Below the pieces are notes generated by a model. It saw only the letters and a list, made by a program, of their open reading frames with translations, did no database searches and had not been told where the DNA came from. 64,000 nt of DNA, taken from contig CALVWG010000080.1 of the NCBI GenBank assembly GCA_944364655.1, positions 2,634-66,633 of the forward strand, written 5' to 3'. Position 1 is the stretch's first letter, and every line of letters begins with the position of its first letter. Positions 6,671-62,057 of this stretch are shown in pieces. The position numbers and the translations under genes are program-made. Source of the stretch: an uncultured Bacilli bacterium (lineage in GTDB: Bacteria > Bacillota_I > Bacilli_A > RF39 > UBA660).

Positions 6671-7609
6671 TTAACGTTGATCACTAATAGTTGCATTGCT
6701 ATTACTTGCTGATAAAGCTGTTAATGGATCATATGGAGCACCAGAAGTTGTTCCAGAAAGTAAGGCAATATCTACGGCATTTTCAGGTATACCCCATGAA
6801 TTACCAGAAAAGACAAATATTGCTCCATCAACTACAAATCCTCTTGTATTATAGGTAACGTTATTCATAATTGTACCAGTTGAATTAGGATTTAAATATG
6901 CAGGTTGACGAAGAGAATAAAAAATATTTTCTTTTACCAATAAATTTGTGGCACTTCCTTGGGTTACAAATCCTCGGTTTACTACCCAATTTGATGAATC
7001 GCCTGCTTGAGGTGGTCCATAAATTTCACAATTAATTATTTGATCATTTGTCCCGGCAACTTGAATAAATTCGACTGGATAAGGGATATTACTAGTTATA
7101 TTTAAACCATCAATAGTAACGTCATTTCCTGTTATTAAAAAAGGAATAATTGAATTTTCTAAGACAATATTGGCACCTCTAGTTCCTTTTAAGGTTATTC
7201 CGGATGTATTCAAAACTAATTGATTATTTAAGGGATAAGTCCCTGGTAAAACATTAATTATTCCATTAGGTTCTACAACATTTAGAGCCTCTTCAATTGT
7301 TTGATATGGAGAAATTTGACTTCCATCTCCTCCTGGGGCGGCCGATGATTCTACATATAAATTATATGGATTTGGCTCGACACTGCCAGTAGCTCCTTGA
7401 GGTCCAGTAGGTCCCGTTGGACCCGTTGCTCCATCACTACCTCTTATACCTGTTGGTCCCGTTGGTCCAGTAGCACCTGGGATACCATCAGATCCTTTTG
7501 GGCCCGTAGGTCCAGTTGGTCCTGTTGCACCTTTAGTATTTGGAATCGGATAAACATAGACATAAGATGGACAGATATTTTTCTTATTATCATTTTTATT
7601 ACAATACAT
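6671..7609 (-). CDS. collagen-like (GPT/GXT triplet repeat) surface protein with C-terminal right-handed beta-helix (pectate-lyase-like) domain; BclA-like
   Basis: About 60 aa of uninterrupted Gly-X-Thr triplets ([28 protein letters not shown]...). C-terminal repeats of the type N..L.GT..L...GITL.G and TIDGLNIT are typical of parallel beta-helix proteins. Short N-terminal targeting-like segment. Confidence 0.8.
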
Positions 7610-17560: not shown

Positions 17561-17926
17561 TTATTCTTCATACGTACATTTTTTTACTTTATTTTCATAT
17601 GTAATTAAAATTCTTTTTGAAGTTGAAATCATTTGATTAGTTTGGGGATCTTTTAAATCGTTGTCTTCAATTAAGCCTTCTTTTAAAATGTCATCAACTA
17701 ATACGGTACATGATCCGCTACTTTGACAACTTTGCTTTAAAGTTTTATTCATATTTAAATCAATGTAAGTACATGCTGCATTTTCTAATGTTTTTTTAAA
17801 ATTTTCATATTGCTCATCTTGTTCTTTTGTATAAGTAGCAGATAAATTACTAACAATAACAGTTCCAATTAAGGCAATTAAACCAATAGTTATAATTATT
17901 TCTATTAATGTAAAACCTTTTTTCAT
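17561..17926 (-). CDS. type IV prepilin-like protein (ComGC/PulG-like pseudopilin) with class III signal
   Basis: MKKGFTLIEIIITIGLIALIGTVIV is the canonical KG|FTLIE prepilin-peptidase site plus hydrophobic helix. Four Cys in the C-terminal domain. Confidence 0.75.
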   Translation of the reverse strand: MKKGFTLIEIIITIGLIALIGTVIVSNLSATYTKEQDEQYENFKKTLENAACTYIDLNMNKTLKQSCQSSGSCTVLVDDILKEGLIEDNDLKDPQTNQMISTSKRILITYENKVKKCTYEE

Positions 17927-31128: not shown

Positions 31129-33072
31129 TTATGGTGTTAAAACAACGCGGAAAGTGCTAGCTCCATAGGCCTGCCCTTCTGTTGGAGAAAATGCAAAGAT
31201 GCCAGCATCTGTTCCATCTGTATATGCATTGCCTCTATTAATCCAAGGTCTACTACTATATAGTAATGCTGCATTATCAAAATGCCAGCTTCCAATTGGA
31301 ATTGTTACTGCCAAATATGTTTTATTATTAAACGGACCCAGTTCGCCGGTAGCATCTCCCAGAATTCTTCGCTGATATTGTTCATCCAATGTTGAATATG
31401 TATAAGTATCATAATATTTTTTATCTGGAAAATCATAGCCCGTTGTTAATTCTATTAAACCTGATGTATCATTTTCTGATGTTGGATAGCCAAAAGTTCC
31501 ATTAAATCCAGAATTTTTCATACTATTTTTTCCACTCATGGGTTTATTGCTTTGATCTAACATAACTCCCATTACATATTCCCAATTACCTCCTGCCATA
31601 TCGTATATTCCTGTTATATTTCCTGTTGTGCTTGCTAATATGCTATCTGGATATGCTATATTACAAGAATAATCTGAGCACCATATATTACACTTTTCAT
31701 TAGTTTGTGTGTAACCACACGTTGGTTCATTATTGGCTGCATATCCTGTTAGATTGGATGAATTATTGTTTATTCTAACGCTTGTTAAACTTCCATATTT
31801 ACTGTGTTGTAAATAGGCTACTGCTCCCCATTCGGTATTCTTCATCATGTGACTATCTAAATTTCTTTTGTAATCATACGATGTATAAAAGGCGTTGGCT
31901 ACTTGAATATTTCGCCATGAGCTTACATTTGGTTTGATTTGAATGGCTTCGCTATTTCTAACGTTATAGTCTGATGTTAATGTTGTTCCCGTTTCAAACT
32001 TACCTACCCAAAATCCTGTACTTGGTATACTTAAAAATGCTGGATGAGTCATGTAATCTCCTACTTGACAGTTTCCTGTCGCACCACTTTCCATTGGTGT
32101 TGTACATTCTCCATCTATTGAATCACTTGTATTATAATCACCAAAGATAATTGGTATTTCATGAACTTTACTTTCATCTATTTCGGTTAAATCTTGATAC
32201 TCACCTAAGTCCCATAATTGATATCGATATTTTGGTATCCACACAAAGTATGATTCTATTGCATCTTCTGGTATTGTTGAGCCTACACTGTAATTAGTTA
32301 TTGAACTTTCATCTTTTAAAATAATTGCATTTGCCCATTCTTTGTTTTCATAGTTATACCATTCTTTTTCTAGATCAGCTCTTTTTACTGTGCCATCATT
32401 GTCGATTGTTACAGCTATTAATGTATCTTTTAATACTGGGTCTGCTCCATTTAATAACGTTTCTTTATAATTATTTGTTTTTGTTGCTGTTGATATAACA
32501 TTTATGCTTCCTTCAAATTTTGTGTTCATGGCTTCATTTCCTGTTGCCTCATCCATCCATAAATAAAAATTGTATGTTTCACTTTCATTTTGTTTTAATT
32601 TTCCACTTGCTATTATTATTGATTCATCTAAATTAGTTATTTGTAATTCTTCTGTTGCGGTATTAAAATTACTTACTGTTCCTAAATTTGTTCCTGTTGC
32701 TGGTTTACTTTCTGTACTTTTATATATGGCATATTTTAACCATTTTTTTTGCATTGTATTTGTTGTTAATGTATTTAATGTTACATTATATGCTGCATCA
32801 TTTGTACATGTATTAGTAATTTTAAATGTATATGGTGTTGCTGATAATCCTTTTTGATCACTTACAGGATAAGTATTATGTAATTCTACTGAAGAAGAAA
32901 GTTCTTCAAATTCAACACTAAAGCATCCCACTTCAACGATATTTTCTCCTCCTGTATAACTTGCTACCCATAAAGCATAACTTTGATAGGCCATTAAGCA
33001 TATTCCTATTCCAACTGTTATTATTGCTAACAATATTTTATATTTTAATTTCATCTTTCTCACCTCATACAT
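31129..33072 (-). CDS. secreted/membrane-anchored protein, paralog 1 of a three-member family with C-terminal FGE/SUMF1-like (C-type-lectin-like fold) domain
   Basis: N-terminal signal/anchor MKLKYKILLAIITVGIGICLMAY and a variable about 200 aa beta-rich module. The about 400 aa conserved block has PNVSSWRNIQVANAF, MMKNTEWGAVAY, ITGIYDMAGGNWEYVMG and RGNAYT, which parallel the FGE-sulfatase family motifs (..SW.dA.a.., ..eaEWeyAar, GlyDMsGNvWEW, RGGSW). Cys-rich. Confidence 0.7.
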   Translation of the reverse strand: MYEVRKMKLKYKILLAIITVGIGICLMAYQSYALWVASYTGGENIVEVGCFSVEFEELSSSVELHNTYPVSDQKGLSATPYTFKITNTCTNDAAYNVTLNTLTTNTMQKKWLKYAIYKSTESKPATGTNLGTVSNFNTATEELQITNLDESIIIASGKLKQNESETYNFYLWMDEATGNEAMNTKFEGSINVISTATKTNNYKETLLNGADPVLKDTLIAVTIDNDGTVKRADLEKEWYNYENKEWANAIILKDESSITNYSVGSTIPEDAIESYFVWIPKYRYQLWDLGEYQDLTEIDESKVHEIPIIFGDYNTSDSIDGECTTPMESGATGNCQVGDYMTHPAFLSIPSTGFWVGKFETGTTLTSDYNVRNSEAIQIKPNVSSWRNIQVANAFYTSYDYKRNLDSHMMKNTEWGAVAYLQHSKYGSLTSVRINNNSSNLTGYAANNEPTCGYTQTNEKCNIWCSDYSCNIAYPDSILASTTGNITGIYDMAGGNWEYVMGVMLDQSNKPMSGKNSMKNSGFNGTFGYPTSENDTSGLIELTTGYDFPDKKYYDTYTYSTLDEQYQRRILGDATGELGPFNNKTYLAVTIPIGSWHFDNAALLYSSRPWINRGNAYTDGTDAGIFAFSPTEGQAYGASTFRVVLTP

Positions 33073-33074
33073 TT

Positions 33075-33776
33075 TTATTTTTTTGATTGAAATAAAGTTA
33101 TAGCAACTAAAATAAATACTACTACTATTAAACCAATTATAATATAATTAATACTTTGGGGATTATTAACCGCGTCATTAACAACGGCCGCGGTCAAAAA
33201 ATAATCAGAACAATGATCAATTTGAAATTCGACATAACCATTTTTAACTTGAACGCCATGATCGATATATTCAATTTGATCTAATTCTGGATTATAATAA
33301 TATAAATACAGCTTTTCGCCATCTTTAAACTTATTTTCAACATTCAGTTTAACTGTTGTTTCTAAAGGTAATGCGCCATGATAATCAAAAGTTATAATTA
33401 ATTTGTCTTGTATAACTTCTTCATTTATTTTGGCAGTATCCTTAGTTGTTGCGTCTATTGAAAGCCTTAAATCCTCTTCAATAAACAAACTGTCTTCAAC
33501 AGAAATATCTTGATTTTTGTCTTTTAAAAATTTCCATGAATATTTTAAATCTCTTTCATAATCTTCAATTTCATAAAAATAATAATCTTCTGTTTCAGTT
33601 TTTGTCATTTTTGTTTTTTTGCTTTCCATAGCAATAATTTTATCGTCTAATTCATCTATTGTAACAATTTTTTCGCTTTTTGGGAGAAATATTTTGCCAA
33701 TGCTTATACCACAAAAAACAATTATAAAAACAATGCTACAAAATATTATAATATCTTTTATGTATTGTTTTTTCAT
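33075..33776 (-). CDS. bitopic membrane protein (N- and C-terminal TM helices, extracellular middle), 233 aa
   Basis: Hydrophobic helices at both termini. Stop 3 nt before the paralog 1 start. Confidence 0.45.
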   Translation of the reverse strand: MKKQYIKDIIIFCSIVFIIVFCGISIGKIFLPKSEKIVTIDELDDKIIAMESKKTKMTKTETEDYYFYEIEDYERDLKYSWKFLKDKNQDISVEDSLFIEEDLRLSIDATTKDTAKINEEVIQDKLIITFDYHGALPLETTVKLNVENKFKDGEKLYLYYYNPELDQIEYIDHGVQVKNGYVEFQIDHCSDYFLTAAVVNDAVNNPQSINYIIIGLIVVVFILVAITLFQSKK

Positions 33777-33801
33777 ATATTCTCCCTTTCTTTTCTTTTT
33801 T

Positions 33802-34470
33802 TTAAATTCCGCTAAGTAAGATAATTAATGGTATTAAATTATAAGCAAATTTAGTCATCATAACCAATATTATATTGCGTTTATTTTTAATATATATGAC
33901 ACCAAATAATAATGCTGGTAAAAAATAAGCCAATATTTGAGATATACTAAAAGTTGCAGTTGTAAAAACAAAATTCATTGCTGTATAAATAATAGCAGTA
34001 ATTAAAACAAATAAAATATTATTATCAATAACTTCATTTAATGATTCTCTAAATAGTAATTCTTCAGCAACAACACCAAAAATCATAGTTTTAAAAATTG
34101 TATAAATCATGGATAAACTTGCTAAATTTTGAATCGACTGAGTATTTTGATCCATATTTACGTCACTAAATAATAAAGTACCCAGTGCAGCTATTACAAC
34201 ATTTAATAAAACAATAGATAAAAAACCCAAAAATATAATTTTTATTATTCTTTTAAAACTATATTCTTTCTTGATTTTTTCAAAATCAGCTTTTAATGTT
34301 TTCTTATACGCAATAATTATGCCAATTAAAAATAAAACGTCTAAACCAAGCATAACTAAATTGTTATCAATATTTTTAAACAAAATGCTTATGTAACCAG
34401 CAAAATATGTGTATAAAAAATAAATTAAATACAATGATGTGGCTTTAAGCAAGACTCCGCTTTTTTTCAT
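33802..34470 (-). CDS. CPBP-family (CAAX protease / Abi-like) intramembrane metalloprotease
   Basis: Polytopic. Motif VAEELLFRESL is the conserved EExxxR motif of the CPBP family. A later conserved His region is also present. Confidence 0.6.
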   Translation of the reverse strand: MKKSGVLLKATSLYLIYFLYTYFAGYISILFKNIDNNLVMLGLDVLFLIGIIIAYKKTLKADFEKIKKEYSFKRIIKIIFLGFLSIVLLNVVIAALGTLLFSDVNMDQNTQSIQNLASLSMIYTIFKTMIFGVVAEELLFRESLNEVIDNNILFVLITAIIYTAMNFVFTTATFSISQILAYFLPALLFGVIYIKNKRNIILVMMTKFAYNLIPLIILLSGI

Positions 34471-35683: not shown

Positions 35684-35790
35684 TTCTTACCTCCTTTATA
35701 ATTTAAGACGCGCCATTAAGGTACGAATATTCGTTTATAACCTTTTTTGTGCGGTTTTGATAAAAGCTAATTGCTTTACAAAACAAATAA
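35684..35790 (-). promoter_or_regulatory. 5' leader of rplU operon with perfect 12-bp palindrome (possible L21-leader autoregulatory structure)
   Basis: About 100-nt UTR between the mapped promoter and the rplU ATG containing ACGAATATTCGT. Ribosomal-protein leader RNAs are known upstream of rplU in Bacilli. Confidence 0.4.
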
Positions 35791-35907: not shown

Positions 35908-37497
35908 TTAAGGGGTTAAAACGGTGCGAAAACCCATAATTAAATCTGCGTGGCCTCTTACAAAGTAAAAACTAAAAATACCTGCTACTGTGCCACTTGT
36001 AAATAAGCTTCCTCTTACAAACCATGGTACTGATAAATTTATAAATGTTGAATTATCAGCATACCAGCTTCCTACTTGTGCAATTTGATTATAATATTCT
36101 GCGGTATTAAATGGCCCCATTTCGCCTGTTGCATCGCCTAATATTCTTCTTGAAAAATCCGTACTGTTTTGACTATAGCTATATACATCATAATACTTTT
36201 TATCTGGCCAATTATAGCCACTAGTTAATTCTGTTAGACCTGATGTATCACTATCACAGTTTGGGCAGCCAAATGTTCCATTAAATCCAGAATTATCTAC
36301 ATTATGTCTTCCACTCAATAAATTTCCATTTCTATCAACAGTTACTCCCATGACATATTCCCATGATCCGCCTGACATATCATAGATTCCTGTTATATTA
36401 TTTGTTGTACTTGCTAATACACTATTTGGATATGCTATATTGCAACTATCATCATTACATTGTTTATTACATTCTTCATTAGTATTTGTCCAACCACATG
36501 TTGGTTCGTTATTGGCTTGATAACCTGTTATATATGATGAATTATTGTTTATTCGAACACTTGTTGCTGAACCATATACACTATGTTGTAAGTAAGCTAC
36601 TGCTCCCCACTCGGTATTCTTCATCATGTGACTATCTAAATTTCTTTTGTAATCATACGATGTATAAAATGCATTAGCTACTTGTATGCCTCGCCATGAA
36701 CTTACATTTGGCTTGATTTGAATTGCTTCGCCATTTCTGACATTGTAATTTGCTGTTAATGTTGTTCCTGTTTCAAATTTGCCGACCCAAAATCCTGTAC
36801 TTGGTATACTTAAGAATGCTGGATGTGTCATGTAGTCACCTATTTTACAATTGCCTGTTGCGCCACTTTCCATGGGTGTTGTACATTCATTTTCTTTATT
36901 ATCACTTGTATTGTAATTGCCAAAGATAATTGGTATTTCATGAACTTTACTCGTATCTATTGTTGTTAAACTATTATATTGACCCAAATCCCATAATTGA
37001 TATCGATATTTTGGGATCCATACAAAATAACTTTCAATTTTATCTTCTGGTATCACTTCGCCAGCTAAATAATCTTCTGTTTCATCTTTTAATATTATGG
37101 CATTGGCCCAATTCTTTTTTTCGTAGTTATACCACTCACTTCCAATGTCGGCTTTTTTGACTGTCCCATCACTATCTATTGTTACTGGTATTAGTTCATC
37201 TTTAATTATTGGATCTGTTCCGTTTAATATTGCTTCACTGTATCCTTTTTTAAAATATAAGGTACATTTTGTTAAACTTGTAGTTACATTTTTGACTATT
37301 GGACTCCACGACTCATAGTCCCATATTATATAAGCACCATTTGTACAACTGCTTTTTGTTTCATCAAAAATATTTTCTCCTTTTGTTGGAATAGTTTTTG
37401 TTTTTTCATTATTTACATATATTGCTAATTTTATATTTTCAAGATTATCTAATTGTTTCTGAGTTTCTTTTTTATTCAATATACCCCCCCAGAACAA
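35908..37497 (-). CDS. paralog 2 of FGE/SUMF1-like-domain family; main ORF lacks signal peptide because of +1 frame offset at G7 tract (phase-variable gene or frameshifted pseudogene)
   Basis: The 529-aa ORF begins at TTG with no signal. The conserved C-terminal about 420 aa is 85-95% nt identical to paralogs 1 and 3. See the upstream signal-peptide fragment. Confidence 0.65.
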   Translation of the reverse strand: MFWGGILNKKETQKQLDNLENIKLAIYVNNEKTKTIPTKGENIFDETKSSCTNGAYIIWDYESWSPIVKNVTTSLTKCTLYFKKGYSEAILNGTDPIIKDELIPVTIDSDGTVKKADIGSEWYNYEKKNWANAIILKDETEDYLAGEVIPEDKIESYFVWIPKYRYQLWDLGQYNSLTTIDTSKVHEIPIIFGNYNTSDNKENECTTPMESGATGNCKIGDYMTHPAFLSIPSTGFWVGKFETGTTLTANYNVRNGEAIQIKPNVSSWRGIQVANAFYTSYDYKRNLDSHMMKNTEWGAVAYLQHSVYGSATSVRINNNSSYITGYQANNEPTCGWTNTNEECNKQCNDDSCNIAYPNSVLASTTNNITGIYDMSGGSWEYVMGVTVDRNGNLLSGRHNVDNSGFNGTFGCPNCDSDTSGLTELTSGYNWPDKKYYDVYSYSQNSTDFSRRILGDATGEMGPFNTAEYYNQIAQVGSWYADNSTFINLSVPWFVRGSLFTSGTVAGIFSFYFVRGHADLIMGFRTVLTP

Positions 37498-37540
37498 CTA
37501 GACTGGTTAGGAGGATTAAAAATGTTATTCTTTTTTTCAT
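37472..37540 (-). CDS. out-of-frame signal-peptide fragment of paralog 2 (MKKRITFLILLTSLVVLGGYIE*)
   Basis: ATG 13 nt downstream of AGGA. Classic n-region plus hydrophobic core. Terminates 8 codons after the G7 tract; removing one G joins it to the 529-aa ORF. Confidence 0.6.
   Translation of the reverse strand: MKKRITFLILLTSLVVLGGYIE
37484..37490. repeat. G7 (C7 on + strand) homopolymeric tract at the signal-peptide/mature-domain junction of paralog 2
   Basis: Only G/C homopolymer longer than 5 noticed in this AT-rich window. A G6 or G9 tract would fuse the upstream signal-peptide ORF in frame. Confidence 0.8.
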
Positions 37541-54106: not shown

Positions 54107-54132
54107 AAAAAAATCTTTCAAAGAAAGATTTT
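54107..54132 (-). terminator. rho-independent terminator ending the Tad-locus transcript
   Basis: AATCTTTC-aaa-GAAAGATT perfect 8-bp stem with A7 on the + strand (T7 on the minus strand) between the pilin gene and ruvA. Confidence 0.55.
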
Positions 54133-54745
54133 AAACTAATCCAATATAGTAAAATTCTAAATCATCAATATCATTTTCATCGCTTCCGGTAATTGCTGGT
54201 ACAATAACTCTAATGGATTTATAATTTGAACATGATCGAAAAGAATTATTTAATGTTCCTTTTTCTGATTCATCTAATATTCCATTATTATTGGTATCGC
54301 AATTATAATTACAAATGCCGTCACCATTACTATCAATATTTAATTCATATGAGCAATTATCTGCGCTAGATTTTGAAATCTTAATATTTTCAAAATCATA
54401 ATAAGCCTCATCATTACCATTTGTTTCAATCGGCCAAGTCTCATTACCATAAGTAATACTATCTTTATTAACCACCATTGTTGAAACAAAATTTTCAAAT
54501 ATAAAATTTATTGAACTTGTGTTTGCATTGGTAGAAATTGATACATCATTTAATTTGTTATTTAATAAGTCTTCTTGAACCGTTTTTATAATAGTAGCTC
54601 GATTTACTTGATTTTCTTTTAAATATGAAGCATGTTTATTTTCGTATTCTATGTCAATTAATAGACTGAAAAGAAAAAGCATTACTATAGCAATTAAACC
54701 AACACTGATAATAACTTCAACTAATGTCATACCTTTTTTATTCAT
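54131..54745 (-). CDS. type IV prepilin-like protein (class III signal G|MTLVE) with Asp/Asn-rich Ca-binding-like loops
   Basis: MNKKGMTLVEVIISVGLIAIVMLFLF is a canonical type IVa-type prepilin N-terminus. DSNGDGICNYNCDTNNNGILDESE resembles DxDxDG Ca-binding motifs. Four Cys. Confidence 0.7.
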   Translation of the reverse strand: MNKKGMTLVEVIISVGLIAIVMLFLFSLLIDIEYENKHASYLKENQVNRATIIKTVQEDLLNNKLNDVSISTNANTSSINFIFENFVSTMVVNKDSITYGNETWPIETNGNDEAYYDFENIKISKSSADNCSYELNIDSNGDGICNYNCDTNNNGILDESEKGTLNNSFRSCSNYKSIRVIVPAITGSDENDIDDLEFYYIGLV

Positions 54746-54779
54746 ATTAAATCATTCCTTATATTTTTATTTATAAACA

Positions 54780-56660
54780 TTATGGCGTTAGAATTAGGCG
54801 AAAACTTACCCACATGTCCATAGTTCCATAAGAGTTACCAACTCCAAATAATCCAGCACCTAAGCCACTAGTATAAGCAGCACCTCGTAAAATAAACGGA
54901 AAATTTGTCCAAATAAAATAACTTTCATCACTATACCAGCTACTTATACTTCTATTTTGAGACAGAAATTGAACTAAATCAAACGGGCCAATCTCACCAA
55001 CGGCATCACCTAATATTCGTCTTGAAAAATCGTTTTGATTAATAGAAAAATTATAAATATCATAATATTTTTTATTCAGAAAATCATAATCAGCTATTAT
55101 TTGGTCATTTTCATCTAGCATAACTCCCATTACATATTCCCATGCACCACCACTCATATCATATATGCCTGTAATATTTCCAGTTGTACTGGCTAATACA
55201 CTATTGGGATAAGCTGTATTACAACTATTATCATTACAATAGCGATTACATTCTTCGTTTGTTCCTGTATATCCACATGTTGGTTCATTGTTCGCGGCAT
55301 ATCCGGTTATATAATCCGAATTATTATTTATTCTAACACTTGTGGCACTTCCATAGGCACTATGTTGTAAATATGCTACTGCTCCCCACTCGGTATTCTT
55401 CATCATATGACTATCTAAATTTCTTTTATAATCATATGATGTGTAAAAGGCATTAGCTACTTGTATACTTCGCCATGAACTTACATTTGGTTTGATTTGA
55501 ATAGCATCTCCATTTCTGACATTGTAATCTGAAGTTAATGTTGTACCTGTTTCAAATTTGCCGACCCAAAATCCGGTACTTGGGATACTTAGGAAAGCTG
55601 GATGGGTCATGTAGTCTCCTATTTGACAGGAGCCTGTTGCTCCACTTTCCATTGGTGTTGTACATTCATTTGCATTGGCATCATTTGTGTTGTAATCGCC
55701 AAAGATTATGGGTATTTCATGAACTTTACTTTCATCTATTTCAGTTAAATCTTCATATTGTCCTAAATCCCATAATTGATAACGGTACTTTGGTATCCAA
55801 ACAAAGTATGATTCAATTGCTTCTTCTGGTATTACTGAATCTACTTCATAATTGCTTGCTGTACTTTCATCTTTTAAAATAATTGCATTTGCCCATTCTT
55901 TATTGGCATAACTGTACCATGGTTTGGTTGTGTCGGCTTTTTTTACTGTTCCATCACTTTCTATTGTGACGGCTATTAATTCATCTTTGATTATTGGATC
56001 TGCTCCATTTAATATTGTCTCTTGATATTTATTTGTATTAATACTTTGACTTTCATGAACTAGTCCTGTTCCTTCTATTTTATATGATACTACTTTATTG
56101 GTATCTTCTTCTGTTACTACACTTTCATCTATTATAATACTTATACTATATACCTCTGTACTGTTTACTTCCATTTCTGCTTCACTTATAAGTGTTCCAT
56201 CTGTTAATTCACTTAATGTTTTTCCATTTTCATAACGACTTACTATTTCTAATGTTTCGCCTACTTGATGTCTTAACACTACTTTTACTTTTGTATTTTC
56301 TAATGTGTTTTCTTCATTGGCTATTAACTTTATTGTGTAACTTCCTTTTAAACTTCCTGTATTTCTAACACTTAATTTATAATCACATTCTCCTAAATAT
56401 AAACTATTTTCTTCTACTGTCATGGGTGTAAAACAAACACTTTTTTCTGTACTTGTTATCGTCCCAGATGAATTTTCATATGTAAAAACTAAGTCTCCTG
56501 CTTCTACAACTTGATTTTTACTATTTCCATCTATTTTAAAAAACATTGCATATGATAAACTTAAGACTACTATTGTTAAACATATTATTATATAACTTGC
56601 TAGCTTTGTTTCTCTTTTAAAAATATTTTTAAAACTTAAGTTATTTTGCATATATTTCAC
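54780..56660 (-). CDS. paralog 3 of FGE/SUMF1-like-domain family, N-terminal signal-anchor plus variable beta-rich module; appended to Tad pilus operon
   Basis: 626 aa. KLASYIIICLTIVVLSLSYAMF anchor. Conserved C-terminal block near-identical to paralogs 1 and 2 (same SWR/EWGAVAY/GIYDMSGGAWEYVMG motifs). Confidence 0.7.
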   Translation of the reverse strand: MKYMQNNLSFKNIFKRETKLASYIIICLTIVVLSLSYAMFFKIDGNSKNQVVEAGDLVFTYENSSGTITSTEKSVCFTPMTVEENSLYLGECDYKLSVRNTGSLKGSYTIKLIANEENTLENTKVKVVLRHQVGETLEIVSRYENGKTLSELTDGTLISEAEMEVNSTEVYSISIIIDESVVTEEDTNKVVSYKIEGTGLVHESQSINTNKYQETILNGADPIIKDELIAVTIESDGTVKKADTTKPWYSYANKEWANAIILKDESTASNYEVDSVIPEEAIESYFVWIPKYRYQLWDLGQYEDLTEIDESKVHEIPIIFGDYNTNDANANECTTPMESGATGSCQIGDYMTHPAFLSIPSTGFWVGKFETGTTLTSDYNVRNGDAIQIKPNVSSWRSIQVANAFYTSYDYKRNLDSHMMKNTEWGAVAYLQHSAYGSATSVRINNNSDYITGYAANNEPTCGYTGTNEECNRYCNDNSCNTAYPNSVLASTTGNITGIYDMSGGAWEYVMGVMLDENDQIIADYDFLNKKYYDIYNFSINQNDFSRRILGDAVGEIGPFDLVQFLSQNRSISSWYSDESYFIWTNFPFILRGAAYTSGLGAGLFGVGNSYGTMDMWVSFRLILTP

Positions 56661-56705
56661 CCTTTTCTTTTTTTATTATAACAAAAATCCCTTTTTCTTT
56701 AAAGT

Positions 56706-57407
56706 TTAGCCTATAAAAAAGTCTATTACAACTGGGGCTAGAATAACTATCAAAATTATTGGAATAAAAAATATGACTGATAAAATACTGATTTTTGTTG
56801 GTAATTTACCAATTTGACTTTTTATTTCTAATAGTCTTTTATCTCTTAAAAAATCTAATTGATTATTTAAAGATTCTTCAATATTATTACCAAATACACT
56901 TGATTGAACAATATTTAATAAAGCATTATTAATCGTGTCGCTTGGAATTCTTTGCTTCATATCAGTAATAGCTTCTGGAAAACTTTTGCCTAAACTCATT
57001 TCTTGTAATGATTTTTGAAATTCTTCGGAAAGCTCTGATTGAATATTTTTAGAAGTAATACGTAAAGATAAAGTTAGATTACGACCGCTTTCTAAAGTCA
57101 AAGACAAAACTTCAAAAAAGAATATAGCTTCTTCTTCTAATTTTTTTTCTCTTTTTTTTATTGGATAATCTAAAACGATATATTCACTTAAATAATGAAA
57201 AATTACGACAGCAATTGGGGCAATAATATAGCCGTTTTTATTAAAAGCTAAAAATAAGAAAAAGATAGCTAAACTAATTAATAAACGATAATTCAATAAA
57301 TCAATTGCTTTATAATGACAATGCAATCCTAGTAATTTTATTTTTTTATCAATTCTTTTAATTGATTTTTCTGAATAAATTTTTCTGACTAAACTTTTTT
57401 CATTCAT
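56706..57407 (-). CDS. tadC: Tad pilus assembly inner-membrane protein TadC (T2SS-F-like)
   Basis: 233 aa, polytopic. Follows tadB with a stop/start overlap. Confidence 0.6.
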   Translation of the reverse strand: MNEKSLVRKIYSEKSIKRIDKKIKLLGLHCHYKAIDLLNYRLLISLAIFFLFLAFNKNGYIIAPIAVVIFHYLSEYIVLDYPIKKREKKLEEEAIFFFEVLSLTLESGRNLTLSLRITSKNIQSELSEEFQKSLQEMSLGKSFPEAITDMKQRIPSDTINNALLNIVQSSVFGNNIEESLNNQLDFLRDKRLLEIKSQIGKLPTKISILSVIFFIPIILIVILAPVVIDFFIG

Positions 57408-58414
57408 TAAATCTTCACCTTTAATACTTTCTTAATAACCATAATATATAATGTATATAATAAAATTACTAAAACTAAAATCATTTTGCCAAGCGTTGTT
57501 GTAAATATTGGGGCAAAATAACTTGGATTTAATATATATATTGCCAAAATAAATAATAATGGTAAAAAACATAAAGTTCTAAATACAAAAATTGAAGCAC
57601 TTGTTAAGCTTTGCATTTCTTGTTTTAGTTTCTTTTTATCAAAAAATGATCTTTCAATAGTACCAAAAACTTTAACTATATTTCCGCCTGTTTTATTTAA
57701 AAGGGTTAAAGAACTTGTAATGTATTTAGCGTCATCTAATTTAACTCGGTTATAAAAACGATCAAAAACAACTTCAATACTTAAACCGTATGTCATATCT
57801 AAATAAATTTTTTTAAATTCATCGCTAATTGGGCCTTCTAGTTCTTCTTTAACAATTTGGACAGCTTGCATTATATTTCTTCCAGATTTAAAGCTGTTAT
57901 TCATAATTATAATTGCTTTTAATAAATCTTCTTCAACTTTCTTTCTTTTCTTTTGATATTCGATATTAATAAATATATCCGGAATAAAAAAGCCTATTAA
58001 AAAAGATATTAAAAAACTCATTAAAGTCATTTCCATTACTTGGAACATAAATGTTAAAATATTAAACAGAATAAATGAGAAGCCAACAATAAATTTTATA
58101 GAAATGTAATCCATGCCACTTATACTATCTTTATCTTCATATTTAATGTGTTTTTCATATTTTAAACCATACTTTTTTAAAAAAACACTTTTACTTAATA
58201 AAGAAGATAATTTATGAACAAATTTCCATAAATAATCAGTAATTGTTTCAAAGAAAGATTTTTCTTTATCATGGATACTTATCAAAGCAAAATCTTCAAA
58301 TCTTTTTTCAAGTTTAATTATTCTTTTTTGTCTGATTAAGTAAATAATAAGCACGATAAGAATTAGGATTACAATACTTTGGGTTATTAAAATTTGCCAA
58401 GAATAATTTTCCAT
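57407..58414 (-). CDS. tadB: Tad pilus assembly inner-membrane protein TadB (T2SS-F-like)
   Basis: 335 aa with N- and C-terminal TM clusters and a cytoplasmic GspF-like domain. Follows tadA. Confidence 0.65.
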   Translation of the reverse strand: MENYSWQILITQSIVILILIVLIIYLIRQKRIIKLEKRFEDFALISIHDKEKSFFETITDYLWKFVHKLSSLLSKSVFLKKYGLKYEKHIKYEDKDSISGMDYISIKFIVGFSFILFNILTFMFQVMEMTLMSFLISFLIGFFIPDIFINIEYQKKRKKVEEDLLKAIIIMNNSFKSGRNIMQAVQIVKEELEGPISDEFKKIYLDMTYGLSIEVVFDRFYNRVKLDDAKYITSSLTLLNKTGGNIVKVFGTIERSFFDKKKLKQEMQSLTSASIFVFRTLCFLPLLFILAIYILNPSYFAPIFTTTLGKMILVLVILLYTLYIMVIKKVLKVKI

Positions 58415-58430
58415 GTTTATCTTCCTTTCT

Positions 58431-59774
58431 TTAATTTTTTTTGTTAAACATAAAGTCGATATCGGTTATACCTTTAGTTGCAATTTTATTATATACTTTT
58501 GGAACTTTATCGTTGTACAAAAAGTATTCACCATCAACTTCACCATTTTTGGTTAAACCATTTTGCTTAAAAGCAAAAATTTCTCTTAATTCTAATTCTC
58601 CCTCATGAAAGTTTTCTAATTCGGCAATAGACGTTATTTTTCTTTTGCCATCACTCATTCTATCAATATTAACTACAAGATCAATAGCACTAGCAATGTA
58701 TTCACGAATGGCTTTAATTGGAATATCCATTCCACTCATTAAAACCATTGTTTCTAGTCGATTCAAAGCATCTTTTGGTCCGTTTGCATGAAGTGTTGTT
58801 AAAGATCCTTCGTGACCGGTATTCATAGCTTGTAACATATCAAAAGCTTCTTTGCCACGAACTTCACCAACGATAATGCGATCTGGACGCATACGAAGAG
58901 CATTTATTACTAAATCTCTAATGGTAATTTCCCCTTCATTATCATAATTGGTAACTCTAGTTTCTAGTGATATTACGTGTTCTTTTTCTAATTTTAATTC
59001 GGCAGCATCCTCTATAGTAATAATTCTTTCATTATCTGGAATAAAACTGCTCAAAATATTTAAAAGAGTTGTTTTACCAGAACCAGTACCACCGCAAACA
59101 ATAATGTTACATTTTCCTTTTACTGCTGCTTCCAAAAACGTTGCCATATATGGGGTCATTGAACCAATTCTAATCATATCGTCAGCACTAGTCATTTCAC
59201 TTCTAAATTTTCTGATTGTTATAACTGGTCCTTTTGTTGATAAAGGAGGAATAACAGCGTTTATTCTTGAACCATCTTTTAACCTGGAATCGACCATAGG
59301 ATTAGTTGCGTCAATTGTTCTTCCCATTGGTCCAATCATTCTTTCAATTGTTCTGATGATATGTTCATCGTTAATAAATGATACACTTTCATCTTTAATG
59401 ATTTGGCCATCTATTTCAATATAAATTTCTTTGGGACTATTAACCATTATTTCAGTAATGTTTTTATCTTCCAATAATTCTGTTAAAGGACCATAGCCAT
59501 TAATTTCATTATCAATTAAATTATATAAATGACTTCTTTCCAAATTAGATAAATCATAACCTTCTATTGTTTTATCGATTTCGTCATTAATAAATTGATT
59601 TAATAATTTATCTTCAGGAATTTCTTTATCAATTAAATTTTCAACTATTTTAGTTCTTAATTCATCTAAAAGTTTTTTATCAGGAAAGATTTCATAATCA
59701 GAAACATAATGAACTTTATTAGGTTTTCTTTCAATATTAAACGCTTCAACTAAGCTCTTCTTCATGTTCGTCAT
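58431..59774 (-). CDS. tadA: Tad/Flp pilus assembly ATPase CpaF/TadA (VirB11-like secretion ATPase)
   Basis: Walker [17 protein letters not shown], Asp box, Walker B and His box of type II/IV secretion NTPases. 447 aa. Confidence 0.9.
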
Positions 59775-60534
59775 CTTCCTTTCCTAAAATATCTGTGGCA
59801 ATTTTCATCATGACTGTGTAATCTTTATTAAAAATTGAGGCTGCTTTATTTTGAAGGGTTATTATCTCACCATTCATAACATAATTATCAATATTTTTAA
59901 TGTAAAATTCTTCGGATATGATGTAATCTACATTAGCTTTTAATATGTTTTTTATATCAAAAAGACTAAAATATTTTTTCATTGGTTCACGAGAATTATT
60001 TAATATTATATTATAATTGTTTTTGTTTAAATCTCTAAAAATCGAAAGTAAACTTTTCATGTTTTTAAGATCTAACGGATCATTTGTCATGATAAATAAA
60101 ATATTTTTTACTTCATCTAAGATAACTAGATTTGTTTCATTTAAATTATGATTAGTATCTATTAAAACAACATCATAAAAATATTCGGCTTTATCAATTG
60201 CTATTTCAATGTATTTTGAATCTATTTTTGATGCTTGTCGAGGATCTTTAGGACTAGCTAATACGTCAATGTTTTCACTATATTTAGTTATGTAATCATT
60301 AAAATTATGAAAGCGATTGTTATTATAATCATCAACTAAATTATAAATCGTTTTATCAAAGGGTTTATTAATCGCTAAAGAAATTCCGCCACTGGATAAA
60401 TCTAAATCCATTATGAGTACTTTTTTACCAATACTTTGATAAATGCCAGCAAGATTTAAGGTAAATATTGTTTTACCAACACCACCTTTACCAGAAAATA
60501 TACATATGCTTTTTCCTGTTTTCTTTTTCATCAC
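59746..60534 (-). CDS. tadZ: CpaE/TadZ-like ParA/MinD-family ATPase (no receiver domain)
   Basis: Deviant Walker A FSGKGGVGKTIFTLNLA. 262 aa. Confidence 0.7.
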   Translation of the reverse strand: MMKKKTGKSICIFSGKGGVGKTIFTLNLAGIYQSIGKKVLIMDLDLSSGGISLAINKPFDKTIYNLVDDYNNNRFHNFNDYITKYSENIDVLASPKDPRQASKIDSKYIEIAIDKAEYFYDVVLIDTNHNLNETNLVILDEVKNILFIMTNDPLDLKNMKSLLSIFRDLNKNNYNIILNNSREPMKKYFSLFDIKNILKANVDYIISEEFYIKNIDNYVMNGEIITLQNKAASIFNKDYTVMMKIATDILGKEDDEHEEELS

Positions 60535-60914
60535 TAAGTCTCCTTTTTTTCTATTATGATATTGCCATCTTTTATTTTTCCAATTCGGTTTACATTTATT
60601 TCATAATCATTAATATTGATTAGTTTGCCAAATATGGAATCTATTTTAGATTTAACTAAAACTGTTACTGTATCATCTTCAACTACAATTTCATAGTTTT
60701 CTTTAGGGATCATATTATATGAAAGAGTTTTTTCTAATGAATCAGTACCATTATTCAAAAAAAACTCTTTTATACTTTCATCGACAATTCCTTTGTATTT
60801 TTGATAACTATGCTCAATAATTCCTACATCAACTATTATGGCAGTTAAAATCAAAAAAACAGGAATTAAAATGATAAACATAATTAAAGTTTGACCTTTA
60901 TTATTCATAACCAA
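60534..60914 (-). CDS. TadE/TadF-like pseudopilin
   Basis: MVMNNKGQTLIMFIILIPVFLILTAIIVDVG is a TadE-family N-terminus (processing site after G, hydrophobic helix). Confidence 0.6.
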   Translation of the reverse strand: MVMNNKGQTLIMFIILIPVFLILTAIIVDVGIIEHSYQKYKGIVDESIKEFFLNNGTDSLEKTLSYNMIPKENYEIVVEDDTVTVLVKSKIDSIFGKLININDYEINVNRIGKIKDGNIIIEKKET

Positions 60915-61251
60915 TCACTCTTTTTACTTCAACTGGATAAGGATTTTCAAATATGATATTTAACCCTGGCGTAATTATTTCGATGTTTTTTGTTAAATAA
61001 AAGGTTACTTTTTCATTATCATCATTTTGAATCTCTAACTCTACATCTTTATCATTTATTTTGACGTCATTTAAAATATCGTTATATGTTTTTTTATTTC
61101 GATATAAATCAATAACGTCACTAAGTTCATTTTCTAATTCATTTCTTATATAAATAATTTTACCAATATCAATAATTGCCAGCACCATAAATACAAAAAT
61201 TGGCAAAATTATTACAAATTCGACTAATGCTTGACCCCTTTTTTTATTCAT
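60901..61251 (-). CDS. tadE: TadE-like pseudopilin
   Basis: MNKKRGQALVEFVIILPIFVFMVLAIIDIG matches the TadE motif G.ALVEF..L.P. Confidence 0.65.
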   Translation of the reverse strand: MNKKRGQALVEFVIILPIFVFMVLAIIDIGKIIYIRNELENELSDVIDLYRNKKTYNDILNDVKINDKDVELEIQNDDNEKVTFYLTKNIEIITPGLNIIFENPYPVEVKRVIGYE

Positions 61252-61257
61252 TAAACG

Positions 61258-61473
61258 TCATTCCTTTTGTAATTCTAATTCTTCTTCACTCATACACGTA
61301 GCTTCACCAGGTTTATCTCCCTCAACATAAACTTTATCAGCTATACTACAAGATGATTTAGTAATCGCGTCTTTTAAATAACCGCCAAAATAAGATACTA
61401 TACTTATAGTAATAACACTAATTAAAGCAATTATTAAAACATATTCAACTAACGCTTGACCTCTATTCCCCAT
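61258..61473 (-). CDS. flp: Flp-family type IVb pilin
   Basis: 71 aa. MGNRG|QALVEYVLIIALISV is the Flp motif (G/xxxVEY plus hydrophobic helix). First gene of the locus. Confidence 0.7.
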   Translation of the reverse strand: MGNRGQALVEYVLIIALISVITISIVSYFGGYLKDAITKSSCSIADKVYVEGDKPGEATCMSEEELELQKE

Positions 61474-61496
61474 AATTCTACCCCTACTCTTTAATA

Positions 61497-61525
61497 ATTA
61501 TACCAAAAAAAAAATGAGATAACAA
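61497..61525 (-). promoter_or_regulatory. sigma-A promoter of flp-tad operon
   Basis: Minus strand TTGTTA (61520-61525), 17 nt, TGgTATAAT extended -10 (61497-61504), about 25 nt upstream of the flp RBS GAGTAGGGG. Confidence 0.55.
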
Positions 61526-61535
61526 TCCAAAAACG

Positions 61536-62057
61536 TTATTTTTGAATTGCTATCACATTAAATAAAAAGATTAACCAAATGCCAATAGCCATTTGAGCTT
61601 TATAACGGTACATTTCGTGAGATGCGACTATTTTATCTGAAAGAGTCACTATCCAACTTTCTTTGTATTTAGGAATTATGTTACTTACAGGAAACATATG
61701 TGCTTCAATCATATTTGCCTGTTTTTTGTCAATGTCAAAATATTTTTTGGCATTAATCAAAGCTATTTTAGGATGAACTTTAAAAGTTTCTTTAGTTGTA
61801 TAGCATTCTGTATCTTTATCTATAAAGAAGTCATGTAATAAGGCTGCCCTTGTTGCTCTTTCATAATCTAAGTGCATTTTCTTAGTCATCATATATGTCA
61901 TTTTAGCTACACGCATTGAATGTTCATAGCGACTAATTCCATGATGTAACTCATGCTTTAAAGCTAAAAATTTTTCGTTATTTATAATATCATCGACGAT
62001 TTGTAAAAACTCAGAAGTTTTTTTCAAACTCATATTTTTCACCTCGGACCCTAACAT
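61536..62057 (-). CDS. HD-domain phosphohydrolase-like protein
   Basis: H...HSMRVA...LLHD spacing typical of the HD superfamily. Short C-terminal hydrophobic tail. Confidence 0.55.
   Translation of the reverse strand: MLGSEVKNMSLKKTSEFLQIVDDIINNEKFLALKHELHHGISRYEHSMRVAKMTYMMTKKMHLDYERATRAALLHDFFIDKDTECYTTKETFKVHPKIALINAKKYFDIDKKQANMIEAHMFPVSNIIPKYKESWIVTLSDKIVASHEMYRYKAQMAIGIWLIFLFNVIAIQK

Follow-up and report, generated by a model that had tools for sequence, protein, structure and literature searches.

A putative GFxxxE-type minor pilin and a variable slot for secreted proteins downstream of a monoderm Tad pilus operon in an uncultured gut Bacilli lineage

Does a Tad pilus operon that continues past tadC into genes for a large secreted protein and for a prepilin of another type encode one machine or a set of chance neighbours? 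The question is raised by positions 54131-61525, minus strand, of a 64-kb window from an uncultured Bacilli bacterium, the window being the whole stretch of DNA that was analysed. It has a GC content of 27%. The gene order is flp-tadE-tadF-(ParA-like tadZ)-tadA/cpaF-tadB-tadC, followed by the gene for a 623-amino acid (aa) secreted protein and by pil204, which encodes a putative minor pilin of 204 aa. The 623-aa gene occupies a place between tadC and the pilin genes that varies among relatives and is called the slot here. An earlier note on this DNA had described a monoderm Tad/Flp locus of nine open reading frames (ORFs). All nine were found on the minus strand where that note had placed them, and Pfam, NCBIfam and PDB searches supported its naming of the Tad core and of the last prepilin. 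From these genes the region is predicted to be a monoderm Tad pilus operon of type IVc, in a low-GC lineage of uncultured, presumably spore-forming gut Bacilli.

The preferred reading, given a probability of roughly 50%, is that a Tad pilus bears a chimeric set of minor pilins at its tip, and that this set displays the slot protein or helps its export. A prepilin peptidase encoded elsewhere would cleave Flp, TadE, TadF and pil204 after the conserved Gly. CpaF, TadB and TadC would polymerise Flp, and TadE, TadF and pil204, together with a second prepilin named pil190 in relatives, would form a priming or tip complex. The slot protein would be exported by Sec and then held at the filament tip or helped through the thick wall by the tip. 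Gene identities, conserved synteny, gene fusions and signal types are what the sequences show; co-transcription, prepilin processing and a physical link between the slot protein and the pilus are inferred, as is whatever goes past gene identity and synteny.

Minor pilins after tadC

pil204 (54131..54745, minus strand) encodes a prepilin of the GFxxxE type with the N-terminus MNKKG↓MTLVEV, the arrow marking the cleavage site. Two profiles placed it above their cut-offs, N_methyl (PF07963) with 24.9 bits against 21.2 and TIGR02532 with 19.7 bits against 16.3. The class III (GFxxxE/N_methyl) prepilin proposed in the earlier note is borne out by both. Among 18 relatives G5, T7 and E10 were invariant and four cysteines were nearly so. 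The family was modest in a word-indexed search (37 clusters); in an exhaustive search 929 representatives passed E <= 1e-3, and 325 of them also passed E <= 1e-10. Residues 150-161 (54263..54298, minus strand), within the four-cysteine insert, form an EF-hand-like loop, DTNNNGILDESE. The EF-hand pattern was kept in 14 of the 18 family members and was matched by 1% of shuffles, so that the Ca-binding-like loop of the earlier note stands as a pattern only. Compared with the sequences of all solved structures, the pil204 profile matched the pilin N-terminal helix and nothing beyond it. pil204 would be processed by a prepilin peptidase.

In relatives pil204 is normally paired with a second prepilin, pil190, of about 185 aa with an invariant KG↓F(I/V)F(I/V)ET signal (for example KG↓FIFIET) and four cysteines. 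G(-1) and E(+5) were invariant in both pil190 and pil204. The pil190 gene was absent from the whole window and is predicted to have been lost from the locus in this genome, a point that the earlier note had overlooked.

The same locus was present on several gut-metagenome contigs, with nucleotide (nt) identities of 99.9% for L001 and 96.5% for L046 (related loci are designated L and a number). The relatives are metagenome-assembled genomes labelled 'uncultured Bacilli bacterium' from the guts of humans (Hadza), ruminants and rabbit. Their DNA was inspected around pil204 orthologues and then in a converse search with TadC as the probe. Lineages were counted at a TadC identity of at least 70% with downstream DNA visible. 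This gave eight: window/L001/L046, L047, L012, L008, L006, L050-52, L015/17/53-55 and L056. A pil204 orthologue followed tadC in all eight. The order after tadC was pil190-pil204 in L006, L008 and L012, and pil204-pil190 in L015, L017, L053, L054 and L055. In L047, L050, L051, L052 and L056 a variable slot preceded pil190-pil204. The window, L001 and L046 had the slot gene followed by pil204 and no pil190, as far as the sequence reaches. The gaps between tadC and the pilin genes were 3-19 nt, or the genes overlapped, in L008, L012, L015, L017, L053 and L055; L008 had a gap of 18 nt and then a 1-nt overlap, and L015 had gaps of 3 nt and 10 nt. Neighbours downstream of the pilins varied by lineage, with ruvAB in L008 and other genes in L006. 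The tiny gaps and the differing downstream neighbours argue that the tad-pilin block is a functional unit.

The pilin pair also occurs outside Tad loci. It had no tad genes upstream in L005, L010, L013 and L043, and in the distant relatives L025, L026, L027 and L035 it lay beside a PilB/GspE-type ATPase. L030 had the order pilC-pilD-pilin-...-pil190-pil204 plus a 1,355-aa pilin, followed by three tandem genes for proteins with a TasA-like N-terminal domain. From the presence of the pair in PilB/PilC/PilD-type clusters of distant relatives it follows that minor pilins in the style of type IVa pili (T4aP) or Com systems may have been attached to a Tad core in this clade. The mixing of prepilin types pointed out in the earlier note is real and conserved. 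The same loci fit a different explanation, in which another part of the genome encodes a PilB/PilC/PilD-type (T4aP- or Com-like) system to which pil204, and in relatives pil190 too, would belong as minor pilins, and their place after tadC is lineage-specific synteny without shared function. The N_methyl type of the pilin signals would agree with this, as would a lone ComGC-like gene in the window (17561-17926) that hints at a second type IV filament system. Such a system would leave the small gaps or overlaps with tadC in several lineages to be accounted for, and the tad-pilin block was found in differing downstream contexts (L006 vs L008). The L015 group swaps the pilin order and the pair is still attached to tadC. 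Tad loci elsewhere also have extra minor pilins such as TadG. Assignment of the pair to a different machine is improbable on this evidence.

The ComGC-like gene encodes a prepilin of 121 aa (MKKG↓FTLIEII) on the minus strand, and its N_methyl score of 21.0 bits fell just under the cut-off of 21.2. A gene for a 348-aa membrane protein precedes it, and the surroundings contain no assembly genes. Over its first 50 nt the ComGC-like gene matches the beginning of pil204 at 82% identity.

Several representatives of the pil204 family were 467-880 aa long. In L016 (9986-12751) a pil204-like N-terminus was fused to Listeria-Bacteroides repeats in a 922-aa protein, and in L019 (10001-11446) one was joined to an ALK/LTK glycine-rich domain in a 481-aa protein. 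From these long members and fusions, modular pilins seem common in the family.

No prepilin peptidase (TadV/CpaA) was indicated by a motif scan, the only search made for it, which covered GxGD(x)K-type motifs in the window and in the related Tad loci with up to 10 kb of flank. The earlier note had likewise reported none in the window. The motif was matched in two of the fetched loci, L030 and the unrelated L028, and in no other. The earlier note had also supposed separate processing by TadV and PilD. All five prepilin-like proteins found here begin alike, with a short basic leader followed by G and xxLxE, and on account of this common format a single peptidase could serve all five.

The slot protein and its possible tie to the pilus

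The slot gene was listed as an ORF of 626 aa at 54780-56660, minus strand. Its start is most likely ATG 56651, giving 623 aa, because this codon lies behind the ribosome-binding site AAGGGTGA and agrees with the starts of orthologues. Two paralogues lie at 31129-33072 and 35908-37497, in line with the earlier note, which had counted the slot protein as the third. The protein begins with a Sec-type signal peptide (56547..56651) that has a basic n-region, a 16-residue hydrophobic core and the ending SYA↓MF. Most family members end the signal with (S/T)(Y/F)A↓x(F/W). A pilin-like N-terminus was considered and rejected, as the Gly(-1)/Glu(+5) signal is missing and a standard cleavage site, SYA↓, comes after the hydrophobic core. 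The earlier note had passed over both the Sec-type signal and the camelysin/TasA-like domain that follows it.

This N-terminal beta-rich domain, designated N626 (56028..56546), is a putative distant module of the camelysin/TasA type. Comparison by hhalign gave a probability of 96% (E 4e-9) with the N-domains of the sister clade and 82% with the N-domain of the 647-aa paralogue, and N-domains were homologous across subfamilies at 82-99% probability. Peptidase_M73 (camelysin/TasA) was the only family matched by several members. Three of 12 members matched it, and the sister-clade member P0189 exceeded the Pfam cut-off (26.5 bits vs 22.5). The 623-aa protein itself had no direct Pfam match to Peptidase_M73, and the link is transitive. 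The N-domain profiles found nothing among the sequences of all solved structures. The N-domain is read as TasA-like from the hhalign homology, the P0189 match and the structural leads described below.

The remaining part of about 415 aa (54783..56027), termed the payload, comprises a small beta domain and a Cys-rich, faintly FGE-sulfatase-like domain. The whole protein may be read as a signal peptide, a TasA-like module, a small beta domain and a Cys-rich payload. The payload region was 68-71% identical in both window paralogues. Conservation in the family is concentrated in these C-terminal 415 or so residues, and the N-terminal 200 or so are variable. The family is known from metagenomes only. 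Over 6,800 clusters are related to the slot protein, and over 7,900 to a sister clade at 33-39% identity. The earlier note had called the protein 'FGE-like' and had given it a lectin fold. The match to FGE-sulfatase (PF03781) was below threshold (E 0.044, 13.9 bits against a cut-off of 23.3), and only 2 of 60 and 2 of 28 relatives reached E 0.007-0.021. No match to FGE, EgtB or PvdO was found when family profiles were compared with all solved-structure sequences. AlphaFold models were of low confidence, with a mean predicted local distance difference test (pLDDT) score of 47.8 for the whole protein (60-sequence alignment) and of 54.2 for the C-domain (109 sequences from two clades, core below 50). 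Neither the sub-threshold match nor the models establish these two labels. A remote FGE or lectin-like fold is plausible because motifs such as GIYDMSGGAWEY are present.

Prompted by the lectin-fold label, a role as target of a diversity-generating retroelement was considered and rejected, as there were no template/variable repeats. The only long direct repeats in the window were the approximately 79% identical cores of the three paralogues.

Foldseek against the PDB returned only noise for the low-confidence C-domain model. For the low-confidence full model it returned nothing at E <= 0.001, and donor-strand pilins were among the top matches (7ueg, a bundling pilus, 7pnb and Fim/Pap subunits), which can serve as a lead only. 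This lead belongs to another possibility, that the slot protein self-polymerises through its TasA-like N-domain by donor-strand exchange into payload-bearing matrix fibres, with the pilins irrelevant or only co-regulated. The camelysin/TasA link of the N-domain would suit such a fibre, and so would the signal ending and mature N-terminus, which are like those of SipW substrates. Against such a fibre, the window protein itself shows only a weak, transitive homology, and the confidence of the model is low. A motif scan found no type I/SipW signal peptidase in the window or related loci. The NCBIfam search for SipW-type signals gave one weak match in one relative (TIGR04089, 'exp_by_SipW_III', E 0.017). 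A self-made fibre would also leave unexplained why the payload is fused to N-termini of type IV pilins. A separate fibre is rated as quite unlikely.

The fusions and the gene order point back to a pilus that displays or helps export the slot protein. The slot holds zero to four genes for large secreted proteins, the 623-aa gene being the occupant here, and its occupants share one N-domain superfamily by hhalign. Other family members occupied it in L007, L010 (a remnant), L014 and L050-52, and one lay after pil204 in L012. N626-type genes were seen only beside pilins, namely in the window, L043 (two copies), L044, L045, L046 and L047. They adjoin the pilin pair even where tad is not upstream, as in L043, and the L047 copy carries a different payload. 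The same payloads also occur on pilins. A pil190-like N-terminus was joined to the FGE-like payload in two genes of L026 and in five clusters (P0158-P0167). The '449C' payload was fused to a pil190 N-terminus in L014 and L025 and to a pil204 N-terminus in L023. For the tip-adhesin or minor-pilin module suggested in the earlier note, these fusions of payload C-terminal domains speak in its favour, but the large protein is not a conserved Tad component.

Several observations weigh against a tie between the slot protein and the pilus, in addition to the pilin pairs outside Tad loci and the lack of a prepilin peptidase motif in the window and all related Tad loci. A prepilin signal is missing from the 623-aa protein, and its models are of low confidence. 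The slot was empty, or was filled by a different or non-family gene, in L006, L008, the L015 group and L056. The family is dense, with three copies in the 64-kb window and more copies several kb from pilins in many loci, and for this reason chance adjacency to pilins is not rare. The N626 synteny in close relatives may be simply inherited gene order. The slot gene also has a promoter-like box of its own, conserved among orthologues.

That box (56675..56703, minus strand) reads TTTAAA-17 nt-TATAAT with TG upstream and is a consensus match. Orthologues in L043 (two copies), L045, L046 and L047 had TATAAT at the same distance from an AGGTGA ribosome-binding site. Since they keep it whatever gene lies upstream, independent transcription of the slot gene is likely, with or without read-through from tad. 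The earlier note had one transcript continuing from the tad genes into the 623-aa gene. The absence of an internal hairpin agrees with that, folding having found one in neither the gap between tadC and the 623-aa gene nor that between the 623-aa gene and pil204. The conserved box makes it uncertain.

The box belongs to an explanation that dispenses with the pilus. The 623-aa gene would be one more copy from an abundant family of surface proteins, variable between strains and often in phase, that landed in a permissive place between tadC and the pilin gene, deleting pil190, with its own promoter and no tie to the pilus, and only pil204 would be a true Tad accessory. Two of the three window paralogues lie among housekeeping genes, and the clusters number in the thousands in each of the two clades searched. 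Further family copies lie 5-10 kb from pilins in many loci. The slot gene is 86-90% identical between strains at the nt level, against 96-99.8% for its neighbours. The FGE-type gene is missing from the slot position in most related Tad loci. A chance passenger would not account for N626-type genes being confined to places beside the pilin pair, including the L043 tandem and L047 with their differing payloads. Nor would it account for the same payload domains on pil190- and pil204-like N-termini in several lineages, or for the three family genes right after the PilC/PilD/pilin cluster of L030. A chance passenger is possible but doubtful. A functional link between the slot protein and the pilus has about even odds.

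Variation within the slot-protein family was apparent in several places. Between the slot gene (54780-56651) and its counterpart in the conspecific L046 (8699-10063) nt identity was 85.8-90.5%, with 96-99.8% for tad and flanking genes. L043 (4902-8525) has two tandem genes whose N626 signal and N-domain are 75-76% identical to those of the window. Their payloads differ, one being FGE-like (660 aa) and the other '449C'-like (481 aa), and this pair demonstrates payload swapping on a fixed N-module. The paralogue at 35908-37539, minus strand, has a frameshift at a G7 run (37484-37490) within its signal-peptide codons. From ATG 37539 it reads MKKRITFLILLTSLVVLGGYIE and then a stop; with G6 it would read ...LGGILNKKETQ, like intact homologues. 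The frameshift may reflect a phase-variable OFF state, decay to a pseudogene or a mistake in the assembly.

The fetched loci amount to about 850 kb, and all G runs of at least 9 in them lay at or just upstream of the 5' end of genes of the secreted TasA-like-N/'449'/FGE-like family, with about 0.1 expected by chance. The runs were at L005 10258-10267, L007 46-57 and 12447-12456, L012 10728-10737, L014 6006-6015, L020 17493-17503, L050 8364-8372 and L052 12187-12195. Some were between TTGAC and a TATAAT-like box and others were within the first 20 or so codons. Poly-G tracts are present in many members of the family. From this placement the family looks phase-variable by slipped-strand mispairing.

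The Tad core, its boundaries and neighbouring genes

Identities of the core genes were taken from Pfam and NCBIfam profile searches and from comparison with the sequences of solved PDB structures. All core genes are on the minus strand. flp (61258..61473) encodes a 71-aa Flp-type major prepilin (MGNRG↓QALVEY). It matched Flp_Fap with E 5.8e-6 and 26.4 bits, under the gathering score of 32.2, and was kept in position in relatives at 66-83% identity. tadE (60901..61251) encodes a 116-aa pseudopilin (MNKKRG↓QALVEF) that matched Pfam TadE at E 2.7e-10 (40.7 bits against a cut-off of 22.9). The tadF-like gene (60534..60914) encodes a 126-aa pseudopilin, KG↓QTLIMF, with no Glu at +5. Its match to TadE was borderline (E 1e-4, 22.8 bits vs 22.9), and its position was conserved in relatives.

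The gene in the tadZ position (59746..60534) encodes a 262-aa ATPase of the ParA/MinD family with AAA_31, CbiA and ParA matches. It consists of the ATPase domain alone, with no N-terminal receiver-like domain. Its best solved relatives were MinD proteins (2e-15), and no TadZ match was found among solved structures at E <= 0.001. The secretion ATPase tadA/cpaF (58431..59774, 447 aa) matched T2SSE at E 6e-61 and the TadA-family profile TIGR03819 at E 3e-96, with 322.6 bits against a cut-off of 373. Its best solved relatives were CpaF at 7e-99, followed by archaeal GspE/FlaI. The platform proteins tadB (57407..58414, 335 aa) and tadC (56706..57407, 233 aa) have one T2SSF domain (PF00482) each.

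Upstream, a hairpin with a U-run at 61518..61554, minus strand, was found by terminator scan and folding. It ends the HD-domain gene upstream, has a stability of -24.4 kcal/mol (z -6.05) and was equalled by none of 200 shuffles. It is a predicted terminator that insulates the tad operon from the HD-domain gene. A promoter-like site follows directly (61497..61525, minus strand), TTGTTA-17 nt-TATAAT with TG upstream of the -10 box. It fits 10 of 12 consensus positions plus the TG, so the extended -10 promoter of the earlier note was recovered, as a consensus match only. Promoter-like matches were not enriched in the window (69 found vs 61.7 expected). Downstream of pil204, where the earlier note had placed a terminator at 54107..54132, there is a real hairpin with a T-run (54107..54131, minus strand), but it is a weak intrinsic-terminator-like one of 10 bp (-7.6 kcal/mol, z -2.4). 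The consensus terminator scan missed it because it has too few G-C pairs.

The HD-domain gene (61536-62057, minus strand) lies directly upstream of flp and encodes a 173-aa protein with a hydrophobic C-terminus. Such a gene also precedes flp in most related Tad loci (L006, L008, L012, L047, L048, L050-52, L056), and the protein could be a conserved regulator or a mere neighbour. The minus strand carries every gene within 54131-62057. Neighbours in the window and in related loci include apparent sporulation genes, read from translations and precomputed Pfam labels.

An Rfam scan of the window matched only a ribosomal protein L21 leader (RF00559, 39.6 bits; 35696-35766, minus strand), upstream of an rplU-like gene, and no riboswitch was found near the operon. 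As read from the translation only, a protein of 312 aa at 6671-7609, minus strand, consists of collagen-like repeats (GPTGPTG/GATGPTG) and, after them, a C-terminal region free of repeats. Two genes lie upstream of the 647-aa paralogue, at 33075-34470 on the minus strand. One product, of 233 aa, is hydrophobic near both termini; the other, of 222 aa, is a multi-pass membrane protein whose EELLFRE motif makes it look like a CPBP protease.

Comparison with known systems

Gram-positive Tad operons, including those of Erysipelotrichales, and modular minor pilins are already known, and phylogeny in the literature derives Tad from an archaeal system. No literature description was found of a Tad core that is conserved along with minor pilins of the GFxxxE type and a slot of varying content for proteins with a TasA-like domain, or of a payload swap between a TasA-like module and a pilin module. 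A wider, more tentative reading is that an archaeal-derived Tad (type IVc) motor captured a pair of T4aP/Com-type minor pilins as an adaptor tip for display or wall passage of a phase- and strain-variable payload repertoire. Payloads would ride on a TasA-like donor-strand module or on a type IV pilin module. This reading is itself on the unlikely side. If true, the adaptor tip would give Gram-positive bacteria their own form of pilus-dependent secretion resembling the type II secretion system, with the connection hard-wired in the genome. Apart from this reading, the great size of the payload family, its variability between strains and its apparent phase variation suggest that it may be a major determinant of colonisation or antigenic variation in an abundant uncultured gut lineage.

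The locus resembles the Gram-positive Tad/Flp loci of Bifidobacterium breve (tad2003) and Bulleidia extructa (PMC12786226) in its short Flp-like pilin, TadE/TadF, ParA-like ATPase, CpaF/TadA, two single-domain platform proteins and lack of a secretin. In several of those cases the prepilin peptidase is encoded apart. Unlike them it adds GFxxxE/N_methyl pilins and a slot for large Sec-exported proteins, has no TadG-type gene and has a protein in the TadZ position without the receiver-like domain.

The specificity of Tad pili is a current question, and tip complexes with exchangeable domains were shown only recently, in Myxococcus. In the Kil pilus of Myxococcus the tip complexes of a Tad system consist of TadE/TadF/TadG-like minor pilins, whose modular domains are exchangeable (PMC12075869). 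The idea there, as here, is that assembly is primed by minor pilins at the tip and that these also bear the variable functional domains, with several alternative tip sets per organism. The variable domains of Kil lie within TadG-like pilins, whereas here they are mostly in a separate protein with a Sec signal and are fused to pilins only in some relatives. The locus suggests another solution in monoderm gut bacteria, a Tad core with borrowed GFxxxE minor pilins and a swappable separate payload. Precedents at the pilus tip named in the introduction of the same paper are PilY1 with T4aP minor pilins and, in the toxin-coregulated pilus, TcpF with TcpB (PMC12075869). PilY1 and TcpF are also non-pilin proteins with ordinary signal peptides encoded with minor pilins, and they are displayed or released via the tip. 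They have no sequence or domain similarity to the slot protein and belong to another machinery class, and the link here comes from gene context only.

In Clostridium perfringens the secretion of BsaC from the sipW-bsaA-bsaB-bsaC (TasA-like) operon depends on type IV pili, and BsaC is paired with PilA3 (PMC11580942). There, as proposed here, a Gram-positive type IV filament is tied to the export of large TasA-associated proteins, its suggested role being to bring them, already folded, across the thick wall. C. perfringens has its pilin and bsa genes in separate loci and uses a PilB/PilC machine; here the genes are adjacent, the machine is Tad and no sipW was seen nearby. The TasA-like-domain genes beside type IV filament genes give genomic support to the tentative idea from C. 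perfringens of filament-aided export or display of large matrix or adhesin proteins.

The payload has its nearest named likeness in the FGE-sulfatase/C-type-lectin-like family (PF03781). Its short motifs, such as GIYDMSGGAWEY and NTEWGAVAYL, resemble those of FGE proteins, and a few members of the payload family weakly match the same part of the profile. The payload differs from that family in that all matches are below the Pfam cut-off and no solved FGE, EgtB or PvdO sequence was matched. Finally, the modular pilins of Streptococcus sanguinis, PilB with a vWA module and PilC with a lectin module, are paralleled by the fusions in relatives (L026, L014, L023, L025, L016, L019), which graft a module onto a pilin N-terminal domain. 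Unlike in S. sanguinis, the window's own protein is not a fusion, and the modules concerned include the FGE-like and '449C' payloads.

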